From the UHGV virus genome UHGV-0073014: 33,091 nucleotides of DNA; one strand, written 5' to 3'. This stretch comes from a virus. The stretch's first letter is position 1; every line of letters starts with the position of its first letter. Shown one piece after another: positions 7,065-27,607 of the stretch. The notes under the pieces were generated by a model, which worked only from the letters and a program-made list of their open reading frames with translations, did no database searches and had not been told where the DNA came from. A program made the translations under genes and the position numbers.

Positions 7065-7622
7065 TTAATTGCTCTTATTCGCCGGAAATTTTCTATAAAT
7101 GGTAGAAACGCCCACATCAAAAATCAGTGCAATACGCTGTCTTGATTCTCCAGCCTCAAGTAAACGCCCAATCTGTGCCCACTGTTCAGCTGTCAACTTA
7201 GGACGGCGTCCACCTACTCTACCTTTAGCACGAGCTGCAGCCAGCCCCGCCCTGGTACGTTCAACTATCAGTTCGCGTTCCATTTCAGCCAGGGCACCCA
7301 TGACATGAAAAAAGAAACGGCCCATTGGGGTGCTGGTATCAATACTGTCAGTCAGGCTTCGGAAATTCACGCCACGCTGGCGCAGCTCTTCTATCAGCGT
7401 AACGAGATGCCGCATACTGCGCCCCAGTCTGTCCAGCTTCCAGACAACCAGCGTGTCTCCTGCCGATAGTGTCCTGAGCAGCTTTTTCAGCCCCGGTCTG
7501 TCGGACTTGGTGCCACTGATTTTATCCTCAAAAATCCGCTCACATCCCGCGCAGTTCAGTGCATTACGTTGCAAATCGGTGTTCTGGTCATTTGTTGACA
7601 CGCGTACATAGCCAATAAGCAT
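7065..7622 (-). CDS. serine DNA invertase (Gin/Pin/Hin/Cin family)
   Basis: 185 aa, N-terminus MLIGYVRVSTNDQNTDLQ with the catalytic Ser context, C-terminal HTH; sits just outside an inverted-repeat-bounded segment. Confidence 0.95.
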   Translation of the reverse strand: MLIGYVRVSTNDQNTDLQRNALNCAGCERIFEDKISGTKSDRPGLKKLLRTLSAGDTLVVWKLDRLGRSMRHLVTLIEELRQRGVNFRSLTDSIDTSTPMGRFFFHVMGALAEMERELIVERTRAGLAAARAKGRVGGRRPKLTAEQWAQIGRLLEAGESRQRIALIFDVGVSTIYRKFPANKSN

Positions 7623-7624
7623 AA

Positions 7625-7632
7625 CCCCCCCC
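7625..7632. repeat. C8/G8 homopolymer 2 nt upstream of the invertase start codon
   Basis: Coding strand reads GGGGGGGG-TT-ATG. Confidence 0.9.
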
Positions 7633-7688
7633 TGAATAAAAACCGGAGATGATGCCAGTTAGCCGTTATCTCTGCATTTTCATAAACG

Positions 7689-7722
7689 TTGGTTTGGGAG
7701 AAGCGGCAAAACGGAATGTAGG
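7689..7722. repeat. left inverted repeat / invertase crossover site
   Basis: TTGGTTTGGGAGAAGCGGCAAAACGGAATGTAGG, exact reverse complement of 9236..9269; encodes the shared motif [11 protein letters not shown]. Confidence 0.85.
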
Positions 7723-8056
7723 TAACGGGCAAAACCAAATTCCGGATATGGCGGCGTTTGCCAGTTCACTTTCATCAACGGGTTTTCAAAAACTCCCTTC
7801 AGGTCTGATTATTCAGTGGGGTATTGTCAGTGGAGCATCAAACTATACGGTGACTTACCCGGTAACATTCCCAAATCGTTCACTTGCGCTGTTGGCTGTG
7901 CCACATACAACGTCGGTGGCTAGTATATCTGCAATGGGCATAGCGAACTGTTCTGATATCAGCAAATCACAGTTCTATATAATTGTTGGCGGTATATCTC
8001 AGGGAGAAATTGTCAAACATGAAAGGTCCTGTTTTTGGGTAGCAATCGGTGTATAG
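7723..8056 (+). CDS. alternative (currently unexpressed) tail-fibre C-terminal module
   Basis: Open frame continuing from the crossover motif ([10 protein letters not shown]...) parallel to the H C-terminus (GTGENQIPDM...); no promoter or start of its own. Confidence 0.7.
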
Positions 8057-8064
8057 GTATATCT

Positions 8065-8460
8065 ATGATTTATTTCTCAAAATCGACTAATGGTTTTTTC
8101 TTTGATGGTATAAACAGCGGCATGCCTGCTGACATTGTTGAGATAAGTACAGACTTATACAATGAATTAATTGCCGGACAGCAGGAAGGGGGTAAATTAA
8201 TCACGTCAGATGAAAATGGTTTACCGGTACTGAAATCTCCGGCGATTGATTATGTCGCACGTGCTGAAAATCAGCGAATGCAGTTACTTGCTCATGCCGA
8301 TAATGTCACAGCTGACTGGCGGGTGGAATTAATGCTTGGTGATATCAGCAGTACAGATAAAGAAAAACTATCTGCCTGGATGGACTACAAAAAAGAAGTA
8401 AAAGCCGTCGACACTTCGACGGCTCCTGAGATTAGCTGGCCTGAGTTACCGGAGATGTAG
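8065..8460 (+). CDS. tail-fibre assembly protein, partner of the alternative module
   Basis: About 131 aa; C-terminal DTSTAPEISWPELP motif shared with the convergent gene 8432..8875. Confidence 0.7.
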   Translation: MIYFSKSTNGFFFDGINSGMPADIVEISTDLYNELIAGQQEGGKLITSDENGLPVLKSPAIDYVARAENQRMQLLAHADNVTADWRVELMLGDISSTDKEKLSAWMDYKKEVKAVDTSTAPEISWPELPEM

Positions 8461-8875
8461 GCCATTCAATATCTGGAGCACTGGAGGTATCCACCAGTTC
8501 CAGTGCGTCCAGGTAATCCAGCCACAAATTATATTGCGCCAGTTCCTCACCTTTCAGACGACCAATAGCTGCTTTGCCAGGCCATTGCTTACTGTTCATG
8601 TATTCGTTAGCCTGGTTAATTAGTAGCTGTCTTTCTGATTCAGTAATTTCAATAAGCTCTTCATGCGTGGGTGGAGGAATATCTGCCCACGCAGGCAGCC
8701 CATCATCTCCGGCAATACGGATTTTTCCTTGTGGCGGTTCAGCCATAAACTCACTGATAATATTTTGATTTACTTCCTTTGCGTCTGATAAATCCCATCC
8801 CTCTGATTTATATTTATCAATCATATCCACAGGGAAAAAAGCATTATGCCTTGCGCTATAAACATATTTGTGCAT
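8432..8875 (-). CDS. tail-fibre assembly protein (gpG-like), expressed orientation
   Basis: Directly downstream of H; conserved C-terminal motif DTSSAPDIEWP. Confidence 0.8.
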   Translation of the reverse strand: MHKYVYSARHNAFFPVDMIDKYKSEGWDLSDAKEVNQNIISEFMAEPPQGKIRIAGDDGLPAWADIPPPTHEELIEITESERQLLINQANEYMNSKQWPGKAAIGRLKGEELAQYNLWLDYLDALELVDTSSAPDIEWPTSPVTQAS

Positions 8876-8895
8876 ATAAATCACCCTGAATAAAA

Positions 8896-10317
8896 TTACT
8901 CACCAACAGCCCACCAACTGTAATTCATCGATACTGTGGAGCTGGTTGATGCAGTTCTGTAAGCGGAATTAAAACCGGTTAGTGTTGGACCTTCTGCAGT
9001 CATCACGAATCCCCGTCCAGCGCCTAAAGGCGCACCACCATCACCAGAATGGGTAAGCATGGCGCAGTCCACTTTTTTAGGAAAAGGGATGCTGAATGTA
9101 ATTCTCATTGTTTGCGTCGATAATGTCGGCGTAATCGCACCACGACCATATTGCAGGATTTTCCCGTTGGGTAATTTCATCCATCCATCACCACTGGCAA
9201 AAGAGGTCATGTCCGGTATCTGATTTTCCCCTGTTCCTACATTCCGTTTTGCCGCTTCTCCCAAACCAAGGTATGTGAGAAGACCAGCTACATCCTTTCC
9301 ACTCAAATTAGTCAGCGTATTGTCCAGCGGTTGTTTACCTGCCAGCGCATTAAGCATTGTCGTGGCAAAGTTCGGGTCATTCCCCAGCGCTGCCGCCAGT
9401 TCGTTCAGTGTATCCAGTGCCGCAGGTGCAGAGCCCACCATTGCCGCAATCGCCGATTTCACAAAAGCCGTAGTGGCAATCTGTGTATTGTTGACCGACT
9501 GCGCCGCCGTGGGGGCTGTTGGCGTTCCGGTGAGTGCCGGACTCGACAACGGTGCTTTTAGTGCCAGCGCATTGTTAATGGTGGTACTGAAATTCGGATC
9601 ATTGTTAATGGCTGCGGCTATTTCTTTCAGCGTGTCCAGCGTGGCTGGCGCACCATTAATAAGGGCCGTCAGTGCCGCCTGTACAAACGCAGTGGTCGCA
9701 ACCTGCGTGGTATTATTCCCCGCCGCTGGCGTTGGCGCTTTTGGTTCTCCGGTAAATGTCGGATTATGTTTCTGCGCATACTGGGTATGAGGATCTTGTG
9801 CGGCAATGTGGTTTCTCATCTGGTCATCCACATACAGCTTTAATTCCAGGACTTTATCATCCACGTATTTACGGGTTGCCAGCACTACAGCAGGGTCGAT
9901 TTTCAGGATGATATTGTCCGTGCTGCTGGTAATCAGCACCATGCGCACGGTCTGGGTACGCCCGCTGCCTTCAGCCAGTTGCGGCTTATAGCTTTCCGGG
10001 CAGTTTCCCACGGCAATCAATGCCCCGGACTCATCAAACAGGCCCACTTCACGTATCCACCAACCGCCCTCGTTTTCAGGGATCACCTGTTCAGCAATAA
10101 TCTGGCTACTGTTCTGCGGGTCGATATAAAGCATATTCAGCGCAGCCCGGCGTTTCTCATTTACCAGTGCCGTCTGCTTTGCGTCCGGCGTTGGCAATAC
10201 TCCGCCGCCATCGCCCACCGCCATATGGGTAATTTTTAGCGGCACACCGAGCGCGGCGGCGCTGGCAAGTTTCGCCGCGCCAATATCCGTCAGCAGGGTA
10301 TAAAATTTTGTGCTCAT
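8896..10317 (-). CDS. H: tail fibre protein H (constant N-terminal part 9270..10317, variable C-terminal part inside the invertible segment)
   Basis: 473 aa ORF with a Thr/Ala-rich repetitive fibre region; the crossover repeat lies in-frame. Confidence 0.9.
   Translation of the reverse strand: MSTKFYTLLTDIGAAKLASAAALGVPLKITHMAVGDGGGVLPTPDAKQTALVNEKRRAALNMLYIDPQNSSQIIAEQVIPENEGGWWIREVGLFDESGALIAVGNCPESYKPQLAEGSGRTQTVRMVLITSSTDNIILKIDPAVVLATRKYVDDKVLELKLYVDDQMRNHIAAQDPHTQYAQKHNPTFTGEPKAPTPAAGNNTTQVATTAFVQAALTALINGAPATLDTLKEIAAAINNDPNFSTTINNALALKAPLSSPALTGTPTAPTAAQSVNNTQIATTAFVKSAIAAMVGSAPAALDTLNELAAALGNDPNFATTMLNALAGKQPLDNTLTNLSGKDVAGLLTYLGLGEAAKRNVGTGENQIPDMTSFASGDGWMKLPNGKILQYGRGAITPTLSTQTMRITFSIPFPKKVDCAMLTHSGDGGAPLGAGRGFVMTAEGPTLTGFNSAYRTASTSSTVSMNYSWWAVGE
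9236..9269. repeat. right inverted repeat / invertase crossover site
   Basis: Exact reverse complement of 7689..7722, inside the tail-fibre H coding sequence. Confidence 0.85.
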
Positions 10318-18759: not shown

Positions 18760-20526
18760 ATGAACACCACACTGACACCCGCAGATCTCGATCCCCGTCG
18801 GCAGGCCATGCTGCTGTACTTTCAGGGATACCGCGTAGCCCGCATTGCTGAAATGCTGGGCGAGAAAGTTGCAACCGTTCACAGCTGGAAAAAACGCGAC
18901 AAGTGGGGTGACTATGGGCCGCTGGATCAGATGCAGCTCACCACCGCCGCACGCTACTGCCAGCTCATTATGAAGGAGCACAAAGAAGGGAAAGATTTCA
19001 AAGAGATTGACCTGCTGGCGCGCCAGTCGGAGCGCCATGCGCGGATCGGCAAGTTTAACAATGGCGGCAACGAAGCCGACTTAAACCCTAACGTCGCCAA
19101 CCGCAACAAAGGCCCGCGCCGTCAGCCGGAAAAGAACGTTTTCACCGATGAACAGATTGAGAAGCTGGAAGAAATCTTCCATTCCTCCATGTTCAACTAC
19201 CAGCGCCACTGGTGGGAAGCCGGAAAAACCAACCGCATCCGCAACCTGCTGAAGTCACGCCAGATCGGCGCGACCTTCTATTTTGCCCGTGAAGCCCTGA
19301 TTGACGCCCTGCTAACCGGGCGTAACCAGATTTTCCTTTCCGCCAGTAAGGCACAGGCCCACGTCTTTAAGCAGTACATCATCGACTTCGCCAAAGAAGT
19401 GGAGGTGGAGCTGAAAGGCGATCCGATGGTGCTTCCTAACGGGGCCACGCTGTACTTCCTCGGCACCAATGCCCGCACGGCCCAGAGTTACCACGGCAAC
19501 CTGTATCTGGATGAATATTTCTGGATACCGAAATTCCAGGAGCTGCGCAAAGTGGCTTCCGGTATGGCTATTCACAAGAAATGGCGACAGACCTATTTTT
19601 CCACGCCATCCAGTCTGACACACAGTGCTTATCCGTTCTGGTCCGGTGCGCTGTTCAACCGTGGGCGCAACAGAGCCGATAAGGTGGACATCGACCTGTC
19701 CCACAGCAATCTGGCCCCCGGCCTGCTGTGCGCAGACGGGCAATACCGCCAGATAGTCACCGTGGAAGATGCGGTGCGCGGCGGCTGTAACCTGTTCGAC
19801 CTTGACCAGTTGCGCATGGAGTACAGCCCTGACGAATACCAGAACTTGCTGATGTGCGAGTTCGTGGACGATCTCGCGTCCGTGTTCCCGCTCAGCGAAT
19901 TGCAGGCGTGCATGGTGGACAGCTGGGAAGTCTGGACCGACTTTCATGCACTGGCCCTGCGCCCGTTTGGCTGGCGCGAAGTGTGGATCGGTTATGACCC
20001 GGCAAAAGGTACGCAGAACGGCGACAGCGCCGGATGCGTGGTGGTGGCACCGCCAGCCGTGCCAGGCGGTAAGTTCCGCATTCTTGAGCGTCACCAGTGG
20101 CGCGGAATGGACTTTCGCGCCCAGGCTGACGCCATCAAAAAACTGACCGAACAGTACAACGTGACCTATATCGGCATCGACTCAACCGGCGTTGGTCACG
20201 GGGTTTACGAGAACGTGAAAGCGTTTTTTCCTGCCGTCCGGGAGTTTGTCTACAACCCCAACGTTAAAAACGCCCTGGTACTCAAGGCCTACGACATTAT
20301 CAGCCACCGCCGTCTTGAGTTTGACGCCGGGCACACCGACATTGCGCAGTCATTCATGGCAATCCGTCGCGCCACCACCGCCAGCGGCAACCGCCCGACC
20401 TATGAAGCCAGCCGCAGCGAAGAAGCCAGCCATGCCGATCTGGCCTGGGCAACAATGCACGCACTGTTTAACGAACCACTGCAGGGCGAGTCCGCCAATA
20501 CCAGCAATATTGTGGAGATTTTTTGA
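18760..20526 (+). CDS. P: terminase large (ATPase) subunit P
   Basis: 588 aa ORF, P2 gpP-like, divergent from O. Confidence 0.9.
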   Translation: MNTTLTPADLDPRRQAMLLYFQGYRVARIAEMLGEKVATVHSWKKRDKWGDYGPLDQMQLTTAARYCQLIMKEHKEGKDFKEIDLLARQSERHARIGKFNNGGNEADLNPNVANRNKGPRRQPEKNVFTDEQIEKLEEIFHSSMFNYQRHWWEAGKTNRIRNLLKSRQIGATFYFAREALIDALLTGRNQIFLSASKAQAHVFKQYIIDFAKEVEVELKGDPMVLPNGATLYFLGTNARTAQSYHGNLYLDEYFWIPKFQELRKVASGMAIHKKWRQTYFSTPSSLTHSAYPFWSGALFNRGRNRADKVDIDLSHSNLAPGLLCADGQYRQIVTVEDAVRGGCNLFDLDQLRMEYSPDEYQNLLMCEFVDDLASVFPLSELQACMVDSWEVWTDFHALALRPFGWREVWIGYDPAKGTQNGDSAGCVVVAPPAVPGGKFRILERHQWRGMDFRAQADAIKKLTEQYNVTYIGIDSTGVGHGVYENVKAFFPAVREFVYNPNVKNALVLKAYDIISHRRLEFDAGHTDIAQSFMAIRRATTASGNRPTYEASRSEEASHADLAWATMHALFNEPLQGESANTSNIVEIF

Positions 20527-21551
20527 TGGGAAAGAGTAAGAAGAACCGCGCTACGGCGACGAAACAGATCCAGCATAAAAACCAGACTTCAGCCGAAGCA
20601 TTCAGCTTCGGTGATCCCGTTCCTGTTCTGGACCGCCGCGAACTGCTGGACTATGTGGAATGCGTACAGATGGACCGTTGGTATGAGCCACCAGTGAGTT
20701 TCGACGGTCTGGCGCGAACCTTCCGCGCCGCCGTACACCACAGCTCACCGATTGCAGTAAAGTGCAACATTCTGACCAGCACCTATATCCCTCACCCGTT
20801 GCTCAGCCAGCAGGCTTTTTCACGTTTTGTGCAGGACTATCTGGTATTTGGTAATGCCTACCTGGAGAAACGCACGAACCGCTTCGGTGAAGTTATCGCC
20901 CTTGAACCTGCCCTGGCAAAATACACTCGACGCGGATTAGACCTGGATACCTACTGGTTTGTGCAATACGGTATGGCAACCCAGCCGTATCAGTTCACGA
21001 AAGGCAGCATCTTTCATCTGATGGAACCGGATATTAATCAGGAGATCTACGGCCTGCCTGGCTATCTTTCTGCTATTCCATCCGCTCTGCTCAACGAGTC
21101 CGCAACGCTGTTCCGCCGGAAGTATTACATTAACGGCAGTCATGCAGGCTTCATCATGTACATGACCGATGCCGCGCAAAACCAGGAGGATGTGAACAAC
21201 CTCCGCAACGCAATGAAAAGCGCCAAAGGACCGGGTAACTTCCGCAACCTGTTTATGTACTCGCCTAACGGCAAAAAGGATGGGCTTCAGATCATTCCTC
21301 TGTCAGAAGTCGCGGCGAAGGATGAGTTTCTGAATATCAAAAATGTCAGCCGCGATGACATGATGGCAGCACATCGCGTACCGCCTCAGATGATGGGAAT
21401 TTTGCCGAATAATGTTGGTGGTTTTGGTGATGTGGAGAAGGCGAGCTGCGTCTTCGTAAGAAATGAACTATTACCACTTCAAAAAAGATTCATGGAAATA
21501 AACAGATGGCTTGGTCATGAAATTATAAATTTTGAAATATATACATTATAA
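20523..21551 (+). CDS. Q: portal protein Q; last ~30 codons are AT-rich
   Basis: 342 aa ORF, P2 gpQ-like; DNA composition turns AT-rich from about 21458. Confidence 0.85.
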   Translation: MMGKSKKNRATATKQIQHKNQTSAEAFSFGDPVPVLDRRELLDYVECVQMDRWYEPPVSFDGLARTFRAAVHHSSPIAVKCNILTSTYIPHPLLSQQAFSRFVQDYLVFGNAYLEKRTNRFGEVIALEPALAKYTRRGLDLDTYWFVQYGMATQPYQFTKGSIFHLMEPDINQEIYGLPGYLSAIPSALLNESATLFRRKYYINGSHAGFIMYMTDAAQNQEDVNNLRNAMKSAKGPGNFRNLFMYSPNGKKDGLQIIPLSEVAAKDEFLNIKNVSRDDMMAAHRVPPQMMGILPNNVGGFGDVEKASCVFVRNELLPLQKRFMEINRWLGHEIINFEIYTL

Positions 21552-21556
21552 AACCC

Positions 21557-21579
21557 AACGGCATCACAATGATGCCGTT
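21557..21579. terminator. hairpin between convergent Q and the PIN-like gene, possibly bidirectional terminator
   Basis: AACGGCATC-ACAAT-GATGCCGTT, 9 bp stem with T/A-rich flanks on both strands. Confidence 0.5.
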
Positions 21580-21588
21580 ATGAACTAA

Positions 21589-22650
21589 TTAATATTCAAA
21601 ATTATTTTCTTCAATAGAGAACTCAATCCCTCGGGATAACTTATCAATATTCACATCAAATGCGATATCTGTTAATTCACCATCCTCGATTTCATACATA
21701 ACTTCAATTTCAATATCGAAACTAATCTCTTGAACTTCAGTTCGTGTGGTTGTCTCCATTGGAATCATTACTTTATCTTCGCTATCCCAATACCCATTAT
21801 TAAAGTCTGGACCAGAAACAGTAACTTCAAAATCTACAGAAACAGAGAAGGTCGCTAGACAATAATTATTGTTAATCTTAATTATTGATGGTTCAAAGTC
21901 ATCAATATTGACGACTTCAAATGAATCCAATTCAGCGTCTTCCCAAGTTGAAACGTTATATCCATCGGCATCATTGAGTTGGGCAATTACGTCCGCTCTT
22001 ATGTCTTCACGTTTGCTTTCGATAAACTGCATCAATTTATTACTTAATTCGTTTGTATGCGTATTGTATTCACCTAGAAACTTATCAAGTGAATCAATTT
22101 GATGAAGATTGTTTTTACCATCACAATAATTTTTTAAGTCACTATCCTCAGAAATGATATACACATCTTCATCATTAACAAATCGCTCTACCGCAGCTAA
22201 AGTGATTGCATCAGGAAACTCACTTTTTTTCTTATTTTGCCCAAATGGTGGTTCTTTGCCAAAGTATTTATCTAAAACCTCATTAAGATCTATTACTTCT
22301 ATTGTAGCTAATTTGGCGTGACATCCTTTCAAAAAATCATCAAAAACTTTTTGTGCTGCTTCGTGAATTTCATGTTCGTTAAATTGCTGAAAAAAACCAT
22401 GGAGCGGTCCATTATCAATACTATTCAAAAGCCTAGCTTTTCTTTGTACTGTGTTTATAGCCTGCAGAGCATCCTTTATTGATTCCTCTATTTTACCTTT
22501 TACTTCTCTCTCTACAACTGTAGTTGTAATTAAGACTAAATCACCTTTCGCACATAATTCATGGAAAGCTTTAAATGCTACCCCCTCAAAATGAAGACCA
22601 GCCTTTACGTACGTTTGTGTGTCAATAAATACCTTATTTGTTTTAAGCAT
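21589..22650 (-). CDS. PIN-like-domain protein with acidic beta-rich C-terminal domain; candidate defence/cargo gene
   Basis: 353 aa; N-terminus KVFIDTQTYV...LVLITTTVVEREVKGKIEE...EFPDAITLAAV...DVYIISEDSD fits a PIN-like nuclease pattern (conserved D, E, D); AT-rich; sits between portal Q and cos; candidate sigma70 promoter TTGATT-N17-TAATCT upstream. Confidence 0.6.
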   Translation of the reverse strand: MLKTNKVFIDTQTYVKAGLHFEGVAFKAFHELCAKGDLVLITTTVVEREVKGKIEESIKDALQAINTVQRKARLLNSIDNGPLHGFFQQFNEHEIHEAAQKVFDDFLKGCHAKLATIEVIDLNEVLDKYFGKEPPFGQNKKKSEFPDAITLAAVERFVNDEDVYIISEDSDLKNYCDGKNNLHQIDSLDKFLGEYNTHTNELSNKLMQFIESKREDIRADVIAQLNDADGYNVSTWEDAELDSFEVVNIDDFEPSIIKINNNYCLATFSVSVDFEVTVSGPDFNNGYWDSEDKVMIPMETTTRTEVQEISFDIEIEVMYEIEDGELTDIAFDVNIDKLSRGIEFSIEENNFEY

Positions 22651-22775
22651 ACTAATCCTAATAAGTTTTAAGATCCGCTACAATTGTTTATGTTTATTTT
22701 TTATCAATAATCATACGTAGTTAAGATTATCCATGTCGAAAAATTAAATCAACTTCAATTTATCCTTAAGCGCGC

Positions 22776-22794
22776 GCTCGTATCCCCGCCACGC
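22776..22794 (-). other. cos-like cohesive-end sequence
   Basis: Minus strand reads GGCGTGGCGGGGATACGAG, close to the P2/186 19-nt cohesive end (GGCG(A/T)GGCGGGGAAAGCA-), recalled from memory; GC-rich patch within AT-rich cargo. Confidence 0.6.
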
Positions 22795-22843
22795 CTGCCC
22801 GCTTTGTGTAGTGGTTTTCATGCACCTGCATGACATAAGCAAA

Positions 22844-22863
22844 AGCCCGCCAGCTCTGGCGGG
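22844..22863 (-). terminator. Rho-independent terminator for minus-strand transcription from the HNH gene
   Basis: GCCCGCCA-GAGC-TGGCGGGC followed by TTTTGCTT on the minus strand. Confidence 0.6.
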
Positions 22864-22977
22864 CATCAGCAAAAACGATCCTCAAACGATCATGCGATTT
22901 CATGCGGCATAGACATGCGTTGGCAAAAATGCACGAAATACTCAGCTTATAGGAAATGGTCTTTTTCCAACCTCCAG

Positions 22978-23697
22978 TTAGCCAAAGCAGAAACCAATAT
23001 TGCAATTTGAAACTCCACAGTTGTGAAATTGATGTGGACCGACTCTTAGCTTGTGTTCGTCTCCTACAATCCGAGTCCCCTTAACCAACATATCTAATCT
23101 TTCCACAATCAATCTTTCAGGCGCATCAACTTTAATAATTAAACGAGGACCTTTCCTTTTTTCTATAATAGTTATTCTAGGACCGACAACCTGAACATCC
23201 CAATGCCTTGCACTACATACCCACTCATTCTTAATTAATTCAAGATTAACAATACCTTGACTATCGTAAAATTTACCCGAAATAAGAAAAGCATTATTTT
23301 CTTTTTCAATGGTTAACAATGGCTCATTTTGAAACATTATTGGTACAGTACAGGATTCAAACGTCGCACCACCAAATATTATTGTTGGATGCCTATCAGA
23401 AAAGTCCAATATATCGGCCACATTCCCTTTTTGTAAGGCTGCAGGAGATTCCATTGCTTTAATGATTTTCTCTTTAGAGTAAAGACGTTTCGTTACTTTC
23501 GCATGACACGTAGGACAAAGTAGTGCTATTGCATTTGGAGAGTGCTCCTTTGCATCAGCGTATGTGGGAATTACATGCTCATACTCAACAATGGGAGAAG
23601 CACAAACAACGCAACCGAAGCCACAGCGCTGCCTTACCTCCAGTTTTACAGGTTCAGGAATTGTTCTAGATAACCCATGCTTGTTAATAGTTGTCAT
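22978..23697 (-). CDS. HNH-endonuclease-domain protein with unknown C-terminal domain; candidate defence gene
   Basis: 239 aa; CGFGCVVC...EYEHVIP...NAIALLCPTCHAKVTK fits the HNH zinc-finger nuclease motif; AT-rich; SD AAGGTAAGG before the ATG; lies between the SOS operon and cos. Confidence 0.65.
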   Translation of the reverse strand: MTTINKHGLSRTIPEPVKLEVRQRCGFGCVVCASPIVEYEHVIPTYADAKEHSPNAIALLCPTCHAKVTKRLYSKEKIIKAMESPAALQKGNVADILDFSDRHPTIIFGGATFESCTVPIMFQNEPLLTIEKENNAFLISGKFYDSQGIVNLELIKNEWVCSARHWDVQVVGPRITIIEKRKGPRLIIKVDAPERLIVERLDMLVKGTRIVGDEHKLRVGPHQFHNCGVSNCNIGFCFG

Positions 23698-23735
23698 AAC
23701 CTTACCTTAAAACTTCGAGAAACCTTTTATATATT

Positions 23736-23750
23736 GATACTATATCAACT
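23736..23750. promoter_or_regulatory. palindrome TTGATA-CTA-TATCAA upstream of the HNH gene (possible operator or promoter element)
   Basis: Perfect 6 bp inverted arms with a 3 bp spacer, about 50 bp upstream of the HNH start. Confidence 0.3.
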
Positions 23751-23819
23751 AACGCCTCGCACAGCTCGTTGTTCAACCTTGCTGACGCCAGAAGCAAGTT
23801 CAGACGCCAGCAACGTTTC

Positions 23820-24053
23820 TTAATGCAGCCAGCTGTCGTCTTCCCACACCTTCTGCATAATTTTCATCACTTGTTTTCTTTCTTCGTCCAGTTGCAGTCC
23901 GGTCAGTTCCACACCGTTAGAGCTACCTTTACGGATACGAATTACCGTTTTGGGATACAGGGGGCGCAGATTGCGGTAAAGCTCGGATTCAAGGGCGTCC
24001 AGGGTAGACTGGCTAATCTTCTGCTCTTTATCGATCATTATTTCAATGCGCAT
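23820..24053 (-). CDS. DinI-family protein
   Basis: About 77 aa starting MRIEIMIDKE; resembles E. coli DinI (MRIEVTIAK...); SD GAGGTG upstream. Confidence 0.75.
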   Translation of the reverse strand: MRIEIMIDKEQKISQSTLDALESELYRNLRPLYPKTVIRIRKGSSNGVELTGLQLDEERKQVMKIMQKVWEDDSWLH

Positions 24054-24063
24054 AAAAGTCACC

Positions 24064-24252
24064 TCAGCTGATGACATCCATTGAGCGATTGTATTCGTGG
24101 GTTCTGATTTTCGCCATGAGTTCATCAGTCAGTTCAGAAACCCACTGCAAAGCCAGCCCCTTCTCTTCATCACTACACTCACTAGCCGCTACAAGCTTAA
24201 GAAAAAAATCAATGCGCTGGAGCTTCAAAGACTCCAAAAAATAGTCCTGCAT
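24064..24252 (-). CDS. small SOS-controlled protein, possible Tum-like antirepressor
   Basis: 62 aa, strong SD AGGAGG 5 nt before the ATG, directly downstream of a LexA box; the Tum assignment is by genomic context only. Confidence 0.5.
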   Translation of the reverse strand: MQDYFLESLKLQRIDFFLKLVAASECSDEEKGLALQWVSELTDELMAKIRTHEYNRSMDVIS

Positions 24253-24294
24253 CTTTCCTCCTATGACACCAAAGCAATACTGTATACATAACCA

Positions 24295-24310
24295 CTGTTT
24301 ATATTTACAG
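24295..24310 (-). promoter_or_regulatory. LexA (SOS) box overlapping the -10 of the promoter of the small-ORF/DinI operon
   Basis: Minus strand CTGTAAATATAAACAG (CTGT-N8-ACAG), with TTTACA upstream and TATACT overlapping the box as -35/-10 candidates. Confidence 0.75.
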
Positions 24311-24404
24311 TATATAATAATCTTACTGATGTAAAACGTTTTTTTACGCTGATCAGCCTGATATGCCTGGTATTATTAAGAGCACGAATTGTTAACCCGC
24401 GTAA

Positions 24405-26777
24405 TTAATACAGGTTTCGCCACTTATCATCTTCCTGCAAACGCTGGTTCCGATAGAAGATACGCAGGCCTGCTCCTGACGGAATACTGCCGCCGCGAAG
24501 CAGTAAATCGACCTCTTTCTCGCTGCCATCAAATCCCCTGGACTTCAGTTCATACACGAGCTGCTGTCGCTGATGATCTGTAATTCGCTGTTTGTAGTCT
24601 TTACGCCGTTTCGGTTTCACCAAGCGTAACCTTGCTGCCAGTTCCCGGCGCTCTTTTTTGCTCATACTGTGCAGGTAATCGTGCAACTCCTTGTCATCCA
24701 TGCGGGTGATATCCGTTCTGGTATCTCCATCAGCTGATTTGTCTTTCCCTTGTTGGTACAAATTTTCAGCAAGGGGACAGTTATTGCCACGAGTCCAAGG
24801 GGCGCAAGCGCCCTGGTCGGCTGCCGCCTCCTGAACATCAACGGCCTTACGAACCATTTTCCACTTCACGGCATGAGTGCAGATCTTGCCCTCTGCAATA
24901 GGTGACCAGATGCCATAAATACGAATGCCGTGATCGCCATAGGCGGTCGGCTCTTCGTTGATTTCATAAGCGGTTCTGATGAGGTGATATTTGCGGGGAA
25001 CCAGTACGCCGCCCTGCTTCATGATGTAGGTGGCAAAACAACCAGCATCAGCAGCAGCCAGGATGGCATCAAGGCGCGGGTTATCCAGTACCGGCGCACC
25101 TGCTTTTTTGTCCCCCTGTTGCCTTGCCGCCTGACCAGCCAGCAATCGCAGTTCACGGTAAGCCTGACGCCCCGGAATGCCAAAGAAGCGGAATTGCTGA
25201 ACACGATGCAGAGACGCCCAGGCATTAACGTATTCAGCATTATCACGCAGGGATTTCCCCGTTTCCTTGCTGATCTCGCCAGCCAGACCACGCCCGTCAA
25301 TGTTCTTACTGATGTATTTCGCGATGTAGCTTGTTGGCGTACCTTTGCGCGGGTTAATCAACTCAGACTTAAAGCGCGGCCCAGTGTTATTGCCCAGTTC
25401 CTCGCGGTCTTCACGGATGGCAAACTTACGCAGTAATGCAGTGATGGCGCGGCGGTCTTTTTTGCGCATAAAACACAACAGGTGCCAGTGAACTGTACCG
25501 TCATGATGCGGCTCAGCCACCCGCACGCCATACCACCGCAATCCGGCTTTGTGCATCGCCTTACGAAATGTAGCAAACATGCCGACCAGATAATCACTGC
25601 TTTGTCTTACCGTCGCATTTGTCCAGGTCGGGTTGGGCCTGCCATTATTTAGCGTGGAATGGAAACGTGACGGACAGGTGATGGTGTAGAAAACGGCGCA
25701 GTCACCGCGCATTTCCGCGATAAGCTCCAGGCCTTTAACACAGGCCATCATCTCATTGCGGCGATGCGCAGGGTTGCTGCTGCTGGCGTTTACCACATCC
25801 TCCATGTCCAGCGTGTCGCCGTCTTCGTTCACCAGTTCATGAGAACGAAAAAACTCCAGCGACTTACGGCGCTGCTCACGTTTATGCATCACGGCTTCAT
25901 AGCTGACATAGGGAGATGCTTTTTTGCTGACCAGGCAGACAGCACGCAACTGCTCTTCCCGCCATTCGCAACGCATCTTCCATAATTTCCGGTACCACCA
26001 GTCAGCGCACAACATACGCGCCAGCGAACCCGGAATGAGTTCATAGGGCACGGGTTTACGGCGGTTTCTTTTCCGGCGGAGTTGCTCAAACGCAGGCGGG
26101 ATGACATCCAGACGCAGGGTTTCCGCTGCCACCTTTTCCCATGTCTTGCGGATTTCTTCTGGCTTAACGTCATCGGTGACATACAAATCGCCACAAGCTG
26201 CATCAAGGCACATGCTCATATGCGCAGCTACCAGGGTGGACAGGCGTTTCACCTGATCCTGACTCATTTCAGGCAGGATCAGCAGGCCGTCCAGCCCTTC
26301 ATGGCTTGCCATAAAGCGAAAAGAAGTGGATAGCTGACAGTCGCGTACATGCTCCAGCCGTTCCAGACATGGCTTAATCGTCTCACGCAAATAGCGGGAA
26401 TAAGCCTTTGGCCTGCCCAGGCTGCTGAAGTATTCAATACGTTGCATCAGCGGCTTGCTGATATGGGAAGGCTGGGCATTGACGTCCGCCAGAATGACCA
26501 TATCTGGATTAAAACGCTGCTGCTCATGCGCCAGCTTTGCCCGACTAATGAGCTTATCCTGCTCCATTTCGCGCTGGACAGGATCACGGGATTCATTAAA
26601 GAAATAACGCTCCCAGACCTGATCGCTCAGTGCCTCGCGGCGCAGCTGTTCCTGCTCGTTATCGGCAGCGTACAGAGCGATCAGGTTTGAAAGCGCAGAA
26701 ACTGAAGATTGCTCTTCTGTCTCTACGTAAGGATTGATTGCTTTTTTCTCAGCATTCCAGGAATAGCTGTAGTTCAT
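24405..26777 (-). CDS. A: replication initiation protein A (rolling-circle nickase, P2 gpA-like)
   Basis: About 790 aa; start taken at MNYSYSW (26777), overlapping the stop of the upstream gene. Confidence 0.85.
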
Positions 26778-27607
26778 TACGCAATCTCCAGTTCGAGCTG
26801 TGAAGGCTGCAAACCATTCGACAGCCAATCAGAAACTGAAGGTGGGCGAACAGCTTCAATTGCACCTTTTAAAATTGCGCAACGGTTTTTCAGAATGACA
26901 GCTTTCAGCTCCTTTTCCGTCAGATTGCGCGAATACTCAGCCTCCTGAATAGCCCGCGTCAGCTCAGGATATTTGCTATTAAATTTGGGGACATTGCAGG
27001 CAAGATTTGTACTGTCGGCAGTCGCCAGTGGGTAATTTCCCAACACACGACCGTCAAGCATGCGCAAACCATGAACAGCTGTTTTGAAATTGTGTCGGCA
27101 ATAAATTGCTTCAAAAGCGTCCTGCATACGACGATGCCAGTGCGCAGTTCTGATAGCCGCATATTCACCAGACGATCCAAAGCAGACACGAGGCCATTCA
27201 CGACATAGCTCGATAAGCCGATCGATTGACTCGTGCATATGCCAGACGGGAGTTGCCTTCCCGTAGAACATTTTCGGAACTTCGTTTATCAGGGCATCAT
27301 TGTCACGTTCACCTCCGTCCACAACATCAGGAATGACAAAAAAAGCGACCTTAGGATGGTGGTAATAGTTCAGGAGCCATTTATAAAAATCACTCCAGTT
27401 AATTTTTAGCCCACGCACCCATGCAGAAAATGCGCCGTTATCAATGCCGACGACCTGAGCGTGCTGAATGGACGCCGCAATCTGATCTGGTCGTACATAG
27501 GAGACGAAAGCGCCAGCTCCGCTCACCGCAATACGATGAACGTCGCCAGCACTTCCCCAGACAGGCGTCCCATGGAAATGATGAATTCCGTGGTGCATTT
27601 CTTTCAC
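26777..27607 (-). CDS. hypothetical protein, possible TGT/DpdA-like DNA-modifying enzyme
   Basis: 276 aa; local motifs PVWG...[12 protein letters not shown]...[10 protein letters not shown]...AVHGL loosely resemble the tRNA-guanine transglycosylase barrel (PVGT, DSGGF, GVG); translationally coupled to dam. Weak, unverified. Confidence 0.3.

Follow-up and report, generated by a model that had tools for sequence, protein, structure and literature searches.

What does the DNA between the portal gene Q and the cohesive-end site cos of a P2-like prophage encode, and what might it do for the cell that carries it? We interrogated this locus in the virus genome UHGV-0073014, a stretch of 33,091 nucleotides (nt) that we refer to as the window and that is a complete P2-like Escherichia coli prophage, 96-99% identical to prophages of RefSeq genomes such as NZ_CP031833. 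An earlier analysis made from the letters of the window only (the sequence-only reading) had proposed that AT-rich DNA inserted next to cos carries a single-gene anti-phage nuclease. The gene encodes a 353-aa protein with a PIN_12 domain. We consider it most likely, at a probability of roughly 0.65 and on the strength of homology and genomic context, that this is a stand-alone protein of the Cosus family, carried on a mobile cassette of the P2 hotspot, that defends the lysogen against unrelated phages.

A PIN_12 gene fills the interval between portal Q and cos

The Q stop codon at 21551 and the cos site starting at 22777 leave a gap of 1225 nt, compared with 167 nt in P2, in agreement with the ~1.2 kb that had been described. 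The GC content (guanine plus cytosine) drops from about 0.51 to 0.30-0.37 over roughly 21400-22750, other parts of the window lying at about 0.52-0.58, and positions 21501-22500 (GC 0.33) are the lowest-GC stretch of the whole window at 500-nt resolution. The P2 cosL reference is GGCGAGGCGGGGAAAGCAC, with which the cos-like site of the window, GGCGTGGCGGGGATACGAG, agrees at 15/19 bases; this motif recurs in all of the related prophage loci that we inspected. The 353-aa minus-strand open reading frame (ORF) called in this gap at 21589-22650 is present. Its placement next to cos in a defence hotspot also holds, as the interval between gpA and gpQ beside cos is a published P2 defence hotspot (Rousset et al. 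2022, PMC9122126).

Residues 7-171 of the protein match Pfam PIN_12 (PF16289, formerly DUF4935) with E=1.6e-25 and 90.9 bits against a cut-off of 32, covering positions 1-171 of the 172 in the profile. An AlphaFold2 model built with 47 homologues (mean predicted local distance difference test score, pLDDT, 89.3; predicted template modelling score, pTM, 0.79) is laid out as a PIN core (residues 1-185), three linker helices (188-227) and an all-beta C-terminal domain (230-345), with the long helical insert of the PIN domain predicted to sit after strand 2. A Foldseek search with the model matched VapC11, VapC26 and VapC30 at probability 0.99-1.0, as expected of a PIN fold in residues 1-180, and also matched the PIN fold of SMG6. 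Residues D10, E49, D147, S167, D169 and D171 are invariant in the 47-sequence alignment, where the relatives are 39-56% identical to the window protein, and make up the predicted canonical acidic set of PIN domains. The sequence-only reading had picked out three of the four motifs that hold these residues (FIDTQ, VEREV and IISEDSD, with D10, E49, S167, D169 and D171) and missed EFPDA, which holds D147.

The full-length architecture of about 350-357 aa is constant among at least 120 homologues; the RefSeq allele of the window protein, WP_000920990, is 351 aa long (E352stop, N260D). According to Matelska et al. 2017 (PMC5499597), PIN_12 proteins are single-cistron products of ~350 aa whose alpha/beta C-terminal region has an unknown fold. 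The window protein fits this description in its length, in the generic matches that are all its C-terminal fold returns, and in having no conserved neighbour gene across 31 loci. Other searches with the protein gave nothing above noise in NCBIfam, a sub-threshold match and no family in PHROGs, and only a spurious SLX4 match (E=0.013) among Protein Data Bank (PDB) sequences.

The window protein is a divergent relative of Cosus

Brc24, or 'Cosus', is encoded by a single-gene mobile-integron cassette, contains a PIN_12 domain and makes cells fully resistant to T7 whether the multiplicity of infection is low or high (bioRxiv 10.1101/2024.07.02.601719). We took the Brc24 sequence (382 aa) from plasmid pKAZ2 (KR827391), where it agrees with the mutagenesis primers of the Cosus preprint; it matches PIN_12 at E=2.4e-36. 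BLASTP aligns the window protein with Brc24 at 28% identity over residues 2-313 (E=3e-18), and hhalign, using a profile of the window clade, gives a probability of 99.1% over 288 columns (query 2-300, Brc24 6-322), an alignment that runs into the C-terminal domain. Brc24 residues D14, D153, S174 and D177 align with D10, D147, S167 and D169 of the window protein. Since this significant homology extends beyond the PIN domain, the window gene is a divergent member of the family of a validated defence gene, located in a known hotspot.

The two systems are alike in consisting of one gene without a partner, carried on a mobile element, and in their architecture of about 350-380 aa, in which an N-terminal PIN_12 domain is followed by a helical linker and an acidic, beta-rich C-terminal domain. 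They differ in carriage, Cosus lying on an integron cassette with an attC site whereas the window gene lies on a P2 hotspot cassette, and Cosus has G where the window protein has D171.

The hotspot, the domain call for the exact protein and one validated member of the family are all published. WP_000920990 is listed as 'PIN_12' in Table S5 of Rousset et al. 2022, including in NZ_CP031833, outside the systems assayed there. The find is therefore incremental rather than surprising, and the novelty implied by the sequence-only reading was overstated. A literature search on WP_000920990, PF16289 or PIN-domain defence in P2-like prophages found only Matelska 2017, Rousset 2022 and the Cosus preprint, and a 2026 NAR (Nucleic Acids Research) paper on P2/P4 mentions neither PIN nor Cosus in its main text.

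The gene lies on an exchangeable cassette that includes the portal 3' end and cos

Among 5426 complete E. coli genomes, 36 carry the PIN_12 gene, always as one chromosomal copy at an identity of at least 99.5%, compared with about 1220-1260 that carry the flanking portal and cos sequences. These counts and the lack of a PHROG family bear out the view that the gene is variable cargo and not a core P2 gene. Nor is it fixed at this position: the slot between Q and cos holds other cargo in related prophages, namely a DUF262 gene, a three-gene STAS cluster, a hypothetical gene with a DUF262 gene, or, in phage Cartapus, a DUF4145 gene.

We mapped the boundaries of the insertion with Cartapus and RefSeq prophages, P2 being a poor reference because its Q has a DNA identity of only about 68%. 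Other PIN-bearing prophages are 91-95% identical to the window in the body of Q and 99.2-100% identical to it in 21501-22750. Mismatches crowd the alignment as far as 21419, and none follows before 21586. On the other side, mismatches restart at 22806 in the comparison with a prophage that lacks the HNH gene found beyond cos in the window (locus L002). From the stop at 21419 and the restart at 22806, the exchanged unit spans about 21420-22805 and includes the last ~43 codons of Q as well as cos. Homology to Cartapus restarts at 22757, and Yersinia and Klebsiella phages match 22768-22919 at 94-97%.

As had been noticed earlier, the AT-richness begins inside the end of Q, whose last 60 nt have a GC content of 0.22 versus 0.50 in P2 Q. 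DNA homology to other portal genes stops between 21401 and 21547, depending on the cargo, and each cargo type (PIN, STAS cluster, DUF262, DUF4145) has its own AT-rich Q tail (window 21401-21551; loci L005-L008). These tails are unlike one another at the DNA level, all AT-rich (0.22-0.38 over the last 60 nt), and encode similar peptides. Because the Q tails are cargo-specific, the hotspot boundary falls inside an essential gene. The earlier suggestion that the insertion replaced the portal 3' end is supported by these DNA comparisons, and such replacement appears to be general for the slot, as would fit homologous exchange with its anchors in the Q tail and in cos. The last ~25-45 codons of Q form a mosaic junction.

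We propose that ~21420-22805 would be a mobile cargo cassette of the cos-proximal gpA-gpQ hotspot of P2, swapped among P2-like prophages by recombination anchored in the portal 3' end and the cos block. One breakpoint within the final ~40 portal codons and a second a little beyond cos illustrate concretely how the cargo of this hotspot may be swapped. Known cargo of the hotspot (old, tin, Rst_DUF4238 and others; Rousset et al. 2022) resembles the PIN_12 gene in its cos-adjacent locus, AT-rich and moron-like organisation, presence/absence pattern and single-gene systems. It differs in belonging to unrelated protein families, and the PIN_12 gene lies on the Q side of cos, with HNH, DinI-like and small-ORF genes on the gpA side.

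Relatives share the slot or adjoin other defence systems

All relatives with at least 50% identity to the window protein (50-56%) occupy the same slot between Q and cos, in P2-like prophages of Pantoea and of metagenomes. One of them (L009) stands alone in the slot, without RmrT and RmrA. In three others (L010, 6236-7943; L011, 6235-7939; L016, 6233-7937), genes for a 198-aa RmrT and a 366-aa RmrA with helix-turn-helix (HTH) and Peptidase_M78 domains lie between cos and the PIN_12 gene, directly upstream of the latter, and match the PADLOC models of RosmerTA at E=6e-92 and 7e-196. RosmerTA and PIN_12 make up a small defence island of two systems, located on the Q side of cos, in these three loci, and one of the RosmerTA-bearing prophages also has a type II restriction-modification pair across cos. 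The HTH-M78 and 198-aa genes were considered as partners of PIN_12 and rejected: the pair is a complete RosmerTA system and is found neither in the window nor in L009. DUF4411 is linked to gop-beta-cII systems, three-component systems with HTH and M78-peptidase partners that likewise place a PIN-like effector on a P2/P4-type element; the PIN family there is DUF4411 and here PIN_12, and the HTH-Peptidase_M78 pair upstream of the three relatives is RosmerTA.

More distant relatives are found in varied elements. Several at 29-42% identity also lie near a P2-type portal gene, one of them in a Desulfovibrionaceae genome. In Vibrio coralliirubri (LK934460; L015, 1-13561), an island of about 12 kb that appears to split the thymidylate synthase gene thyA holds a CTD6/MC2/AAA_23 cluster, the PIN_12 gene and Gabija (an OLD-like TOPRIM ATPase and a UvrD helicase). 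One relative resides in a Salmonella integrative conjugative element near an AAA_15 and HNH pair, and another beside a relaxase gene in Pseudomonas aeruginosa. The viral contig IMGVR_UViG_2636415599_000005 (L130, 4992-6110) encodes a PIN_12 protein of 372 aa whose full-length identity to Brc24/Cosus is 31%, and the gene lies at the margin of an HP1/P2-like prophage, flanked by baseplate or tail genes and by a host permease gene; this locus has no DNA similarity to the window. A pattern scan with one genome per species placed relatives in at least 219 genomes from many phyla, and relatives are also encoded by 46 viral contigs of IMG/VR and by 1 of 50,697 GenBank phage records.

When the two nearest genes on each side were compared across 31 diverse loci, no Pfam family recurred in more than two of them, and there is therefore no conserved partner gene. 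Strong PADLOC matches among 123 neighbours are IetA/IetS, pAgo, AbiO, Nhi, PD-Lambda-3_B, NsnB, HEC-03B, a type III methyltransferase and several PDC candidates, which suggests that the relatives associate with defence islands.

Weighing a role in defence

In the mechanism that we favour, a VapC-type PIN_12 domain with a complete metal-binding acidic set would be joined by the helical linker to a family-specific, hyper-acidic beta-sheet domain in one stand-alone Cosus-family protein, expressed in the lysogen from a promoter of its own. The substrate of the PIN domain would be nucleic acid, and RNA is the most probable one, since the fold relatives of the domain are VapC and SMG6. Action may be direct rather than abortive, by analogy with the protection that Cosus gives at both multiplicities of infection.

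Several points weigh against this reading. Support for defence in the window clade comes from homology and genomic context, and identity to Cosus is only 24-28%. Cosus T12 and D96 align with F8 and Q89 here and appear not to be conserved, D96/Q89 lying in the poorly aligned helical insert. PADLOC v2.0.0, a release that predates Cosus, gave no match for the window protein at E<=1, and none for Brc24 and two relatives at E<=0.1, so that the search of defence models proposed by the sequence-only reading came back empty. The neighbour survey had no matched control, and many of the neighbours are housekeeping genes. The promoter and terminators are consensus matches only, with 12 promoter-like sites versus 9.3 expected from shuffled sequence. 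Finally, 11 Cosus mutants were made, including D153A and D177A, and the text of the preprint (10.1101/2024.07.02.601719) reports strong loss for T12A, D14A and D96A only (protection cut by more than 1e5-fold), with D14A keeping 100-fold protection. The sole Cosus escape mutation lies in gp12, a tail protein, and on this basis the authors suggested that Cosus has a dual activity, one part of which would be interference with injection.

Because the D153 and D177 mutants are not reported there to lose protection, D14A has residual activity and escape maps to gp12, nuclease catalysis may not be the whole mechanism. Of the single-gene anti-phage nuclease proposed earlier, the defence part thus gains support from the homology to Cosus/Brc24 and the nuclease part is less certain. 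The same mutant results, together with protection at high multiplicity of infection, could be taken further to mean defence without any PIN catalysis, PIN_12 serving by analogy with Cosus as an RNA/DNA-binding or scaffold module that blocks genome entry or another early step. We consider this rather unlikely, as the clade shows no variation at any of the four or five canonical acidic PIN residues, a pattern hard to account for without catalysis.

The gene might instead serve the phage itself, through takeover of the host or of a satellite (P4), counter-defence, or degradation of host RNA in lytic growth. It adjoins cos, the sole region that P2 shares with satellite P4, and hotspots can also hold anti-defence genes. 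However, the gene converges on the late operon and is preceded by a sigma-70-like promoter of its own, it is missing from about 97% of related prophages, and GenBank phage records hardly ever encode a relative. A part in lytic growth would also be meaningless for the relatives that reside on chromosomal islands, integrons and integrative conjugative elements, and we regard this reading as highly improbable.

If the window protein is active in defence, as we favour, it would represent a second, divergent and prophage-borne clade of the Cosus family, and the combination of PIN_12 and an acidic domain would be a widespread form of single-protein defence. It would also offer a compact 353-aa model for how a PIN protein lacking an antitoxin stays harmless and is then triggered, a question left by Cosus.

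The acidic C-terminal domain is specific to the family

The C-terminal half had been described as highly acidic and beta-rich, without an assignable family, and this holds. Residues 230-353 contain 31 D+E versus 5 K+R (isoelectric point 4.05, net charge -26) and are all-beta in the model, where the domain has a predicted fold of the generic helix-plus-curved-sheet kind with generic structural matches only. The net charge of the domain is -20 to -33 in every family member examined. A phmmer search with residues 211-353 against 1.84 billion representative proteins returned 63 matches, essentially all of them either PIN_12 proteins of ~350 aa in which the domain is placed as here, or fragments of these that are truncated at the N-terminus; two longer matches with many matched stretches have no PIN_12 domain. 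Since the matches are PIN_12 proteins or their fragments, the domain is family-specific. The idea that it is a shuffled sensor module was ruled out by the same result.

In the defence reading, the acidic domain would be a regulator, sensor or oligomerisation module that replaces a separate antitoxin. Cosus is itself predicted to form a hexamer. An addiction role makes a related use of the domain: the protein could be a single-chain module resembling a toxin-antitoxin pair, a prophage stabiliser or stress RNase with the acidic domain as fused antitoxin and no part in defence. PIN/VapC domains are classic type II toxins, the acidic domain is conserved, and there is no plausible antitoxin ORF between the promoter and the PIN_12 gene or downstream of the gene; Cosus carries a fitness cost of 11%, and some of its constructs are toxic in P. 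aeruginosa (10.1101/2024.07.02.601719). The protein differs from VapC-type PIN toxins (Mycobacterium tuberculosis VapC11, VapC21 and VapC20), which are ~130 aa long, in its 353 aa with the long helical insert and fused acidic domain, and its gene differs from VapBC in that an adjacent VapB-type antitoxin gene was not found. Against a role in addiction only, the family member Cosus gives more than 1e5-fold protection against T7, the slot is otherwise filled by defence cargo, and relatives adjoin defence systems in unrelated elements. We judge it improbable, and addiction and defence are in any case compatible with each other.

A more speculative and, to us, doubtful elaboration of the defence reading is that the acidic domain mimics nucleic acid. 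It might occlude the PIN site in cis, as a fused antitoxin, or act as bait for a phage nucleic-acid-binding protein, so that its displacement on infection would activate the nuclease. Were this so, the family would be one of single-chain sensor-effector immune proteins acting without cell killing, and the portal-tail and cos anchors would provide a dedicated route for cassette hops between P2-like phages.

Features and genes around the cassette

From Q towards the replication genes, the order is terminase P, portal Q, the PIN_12 gene, cos, the HNH gene, a DinI-like gene, a small conserved ORF and gpA (Table 1). The best-scoring sigma-70-like match within 21400-23900 is the minus-strand site at 22739-22710, and the promoter-like sequence and terminator hairpin that the sequence-only reading had assigned to the PIN_12 gene were both found again. 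The hairpin on the gpA side of cos would, if it works as its sequence predicts, insulate the PIN_12 gene from read-through from the gpA/HNH side. An Rfam scan of 21300-24400 gave no matches.

Table 1. Coordinates of features at the Q-cos-gpA locus (positions in the window)
Feature	Position	Strand	Remarks
Terminase P	18760-20526	+	
Portal Q, 341 aa	20526..21551	+	ATG as in RefSeq; ORF list extends to TTG 20523; Pfam Phage_portal E=1.6e-16; RefSeq 'phage portal protein'
Cassette-borne 3' end of Q, last ~43 codons	21420..21551	+	AT-rich; protein sequence still similar to other Q tails
Terminator-like hairpin, 11 bp stem, 3-nt loop, then GGTTTTATAA	21556..21580	-	Between the convergent Q and PIN_12 genes; T-run downstream; consensus match only
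PIN_12 family gene, 353 aa	21589..22650	-	
Hyper-acidic beta-sheet domain, codons 230-353	21592..21963	-	Net charge -26; conserved W236, G280, P281, D282
Last PIN strand and helical linker, codons 186-229	21964..22095	-	Helices 188-199, 202-212, 214-227; AlphaFold2 model
PIN domain with long helical insert, codons 1-185	22096..22650	-	Conserved D10, E49, D147, S167, D169, D171
Shine-Dalgarno-like AGGA	22656..22659	-	5 nt before ATG of PIN_12 gene; read from sequence
Sigma-70 promoter-like site, TCGACA, 18 nt spacer, TATGAT	22710..22739	-	10/12; upstream of PIN_12 gene; consensus match only
Conserved cos block	22757..22919		Common to other P2-like phages; right-hand homology anchor of cassette
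cos cohesive-end equivalent GGCGTGGCGGGGATACGAG	22777..22795	-	15/19 identical to P2 cosL
Terminator-like hairpin GCCCGCCAGAGCTGGCGGGC, then T-run	22845..22864	-	Upstream of cos, gpA/HNH side
HNH-domain gene, 239 aa	22978-23697	-	
Replication gene A (gpA)	24405-26828	-	

Across cos, towards gpA, the window has another AT-rich cargo insertion (22920-23750), which most PIN-bearing prophages lack. It encodes the 239-aa HNH protein, which has an N-terminal HNH motif (Pfam E=2.4e-5) and an unassigned second half, and over its whole length matches phrog_6544, a family with no function assigned there. The protein (WP_000207842) is listed beside other cargo, such as a TIR-like gene, in Table S5 of Rousset et al. 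2022 (PMC9122126), and its gene may be an independent single-gene candidate.

The PIN_12 and HNH genes share their AT-richness and the minus strand, and they are neighbours in the window as well as in four RefSeq genomes, as the genes of a two-gene system spanning cos would be. Yet among the PIN-bearing matches listed only four include the HNH gene, the others reaching only 22919, and the HNH protein occurs with other cargo; cos, the conserved block and a terminator part the two genes. The independent distribution of the two genes effectively rules out a single system, which we find scarcely credible.

The gpA-side flank of the hotspot, at 23820-24252, consists of a DinI-like gene (Pfam E=1.3e-22) and an ORF of 62 aa that belongs to phrog_698. 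Both recur beside many different cargo sets, and they therefore seem to be conserved hotspot-border genes rather than cargo. Far from the locus, a milder second low-GC stretch (0.42-0.46) at 7500-9000 lies in the region for the tail fibre and its assembly, where both strands carry short ORFs, and is possibly a host-range cassette.

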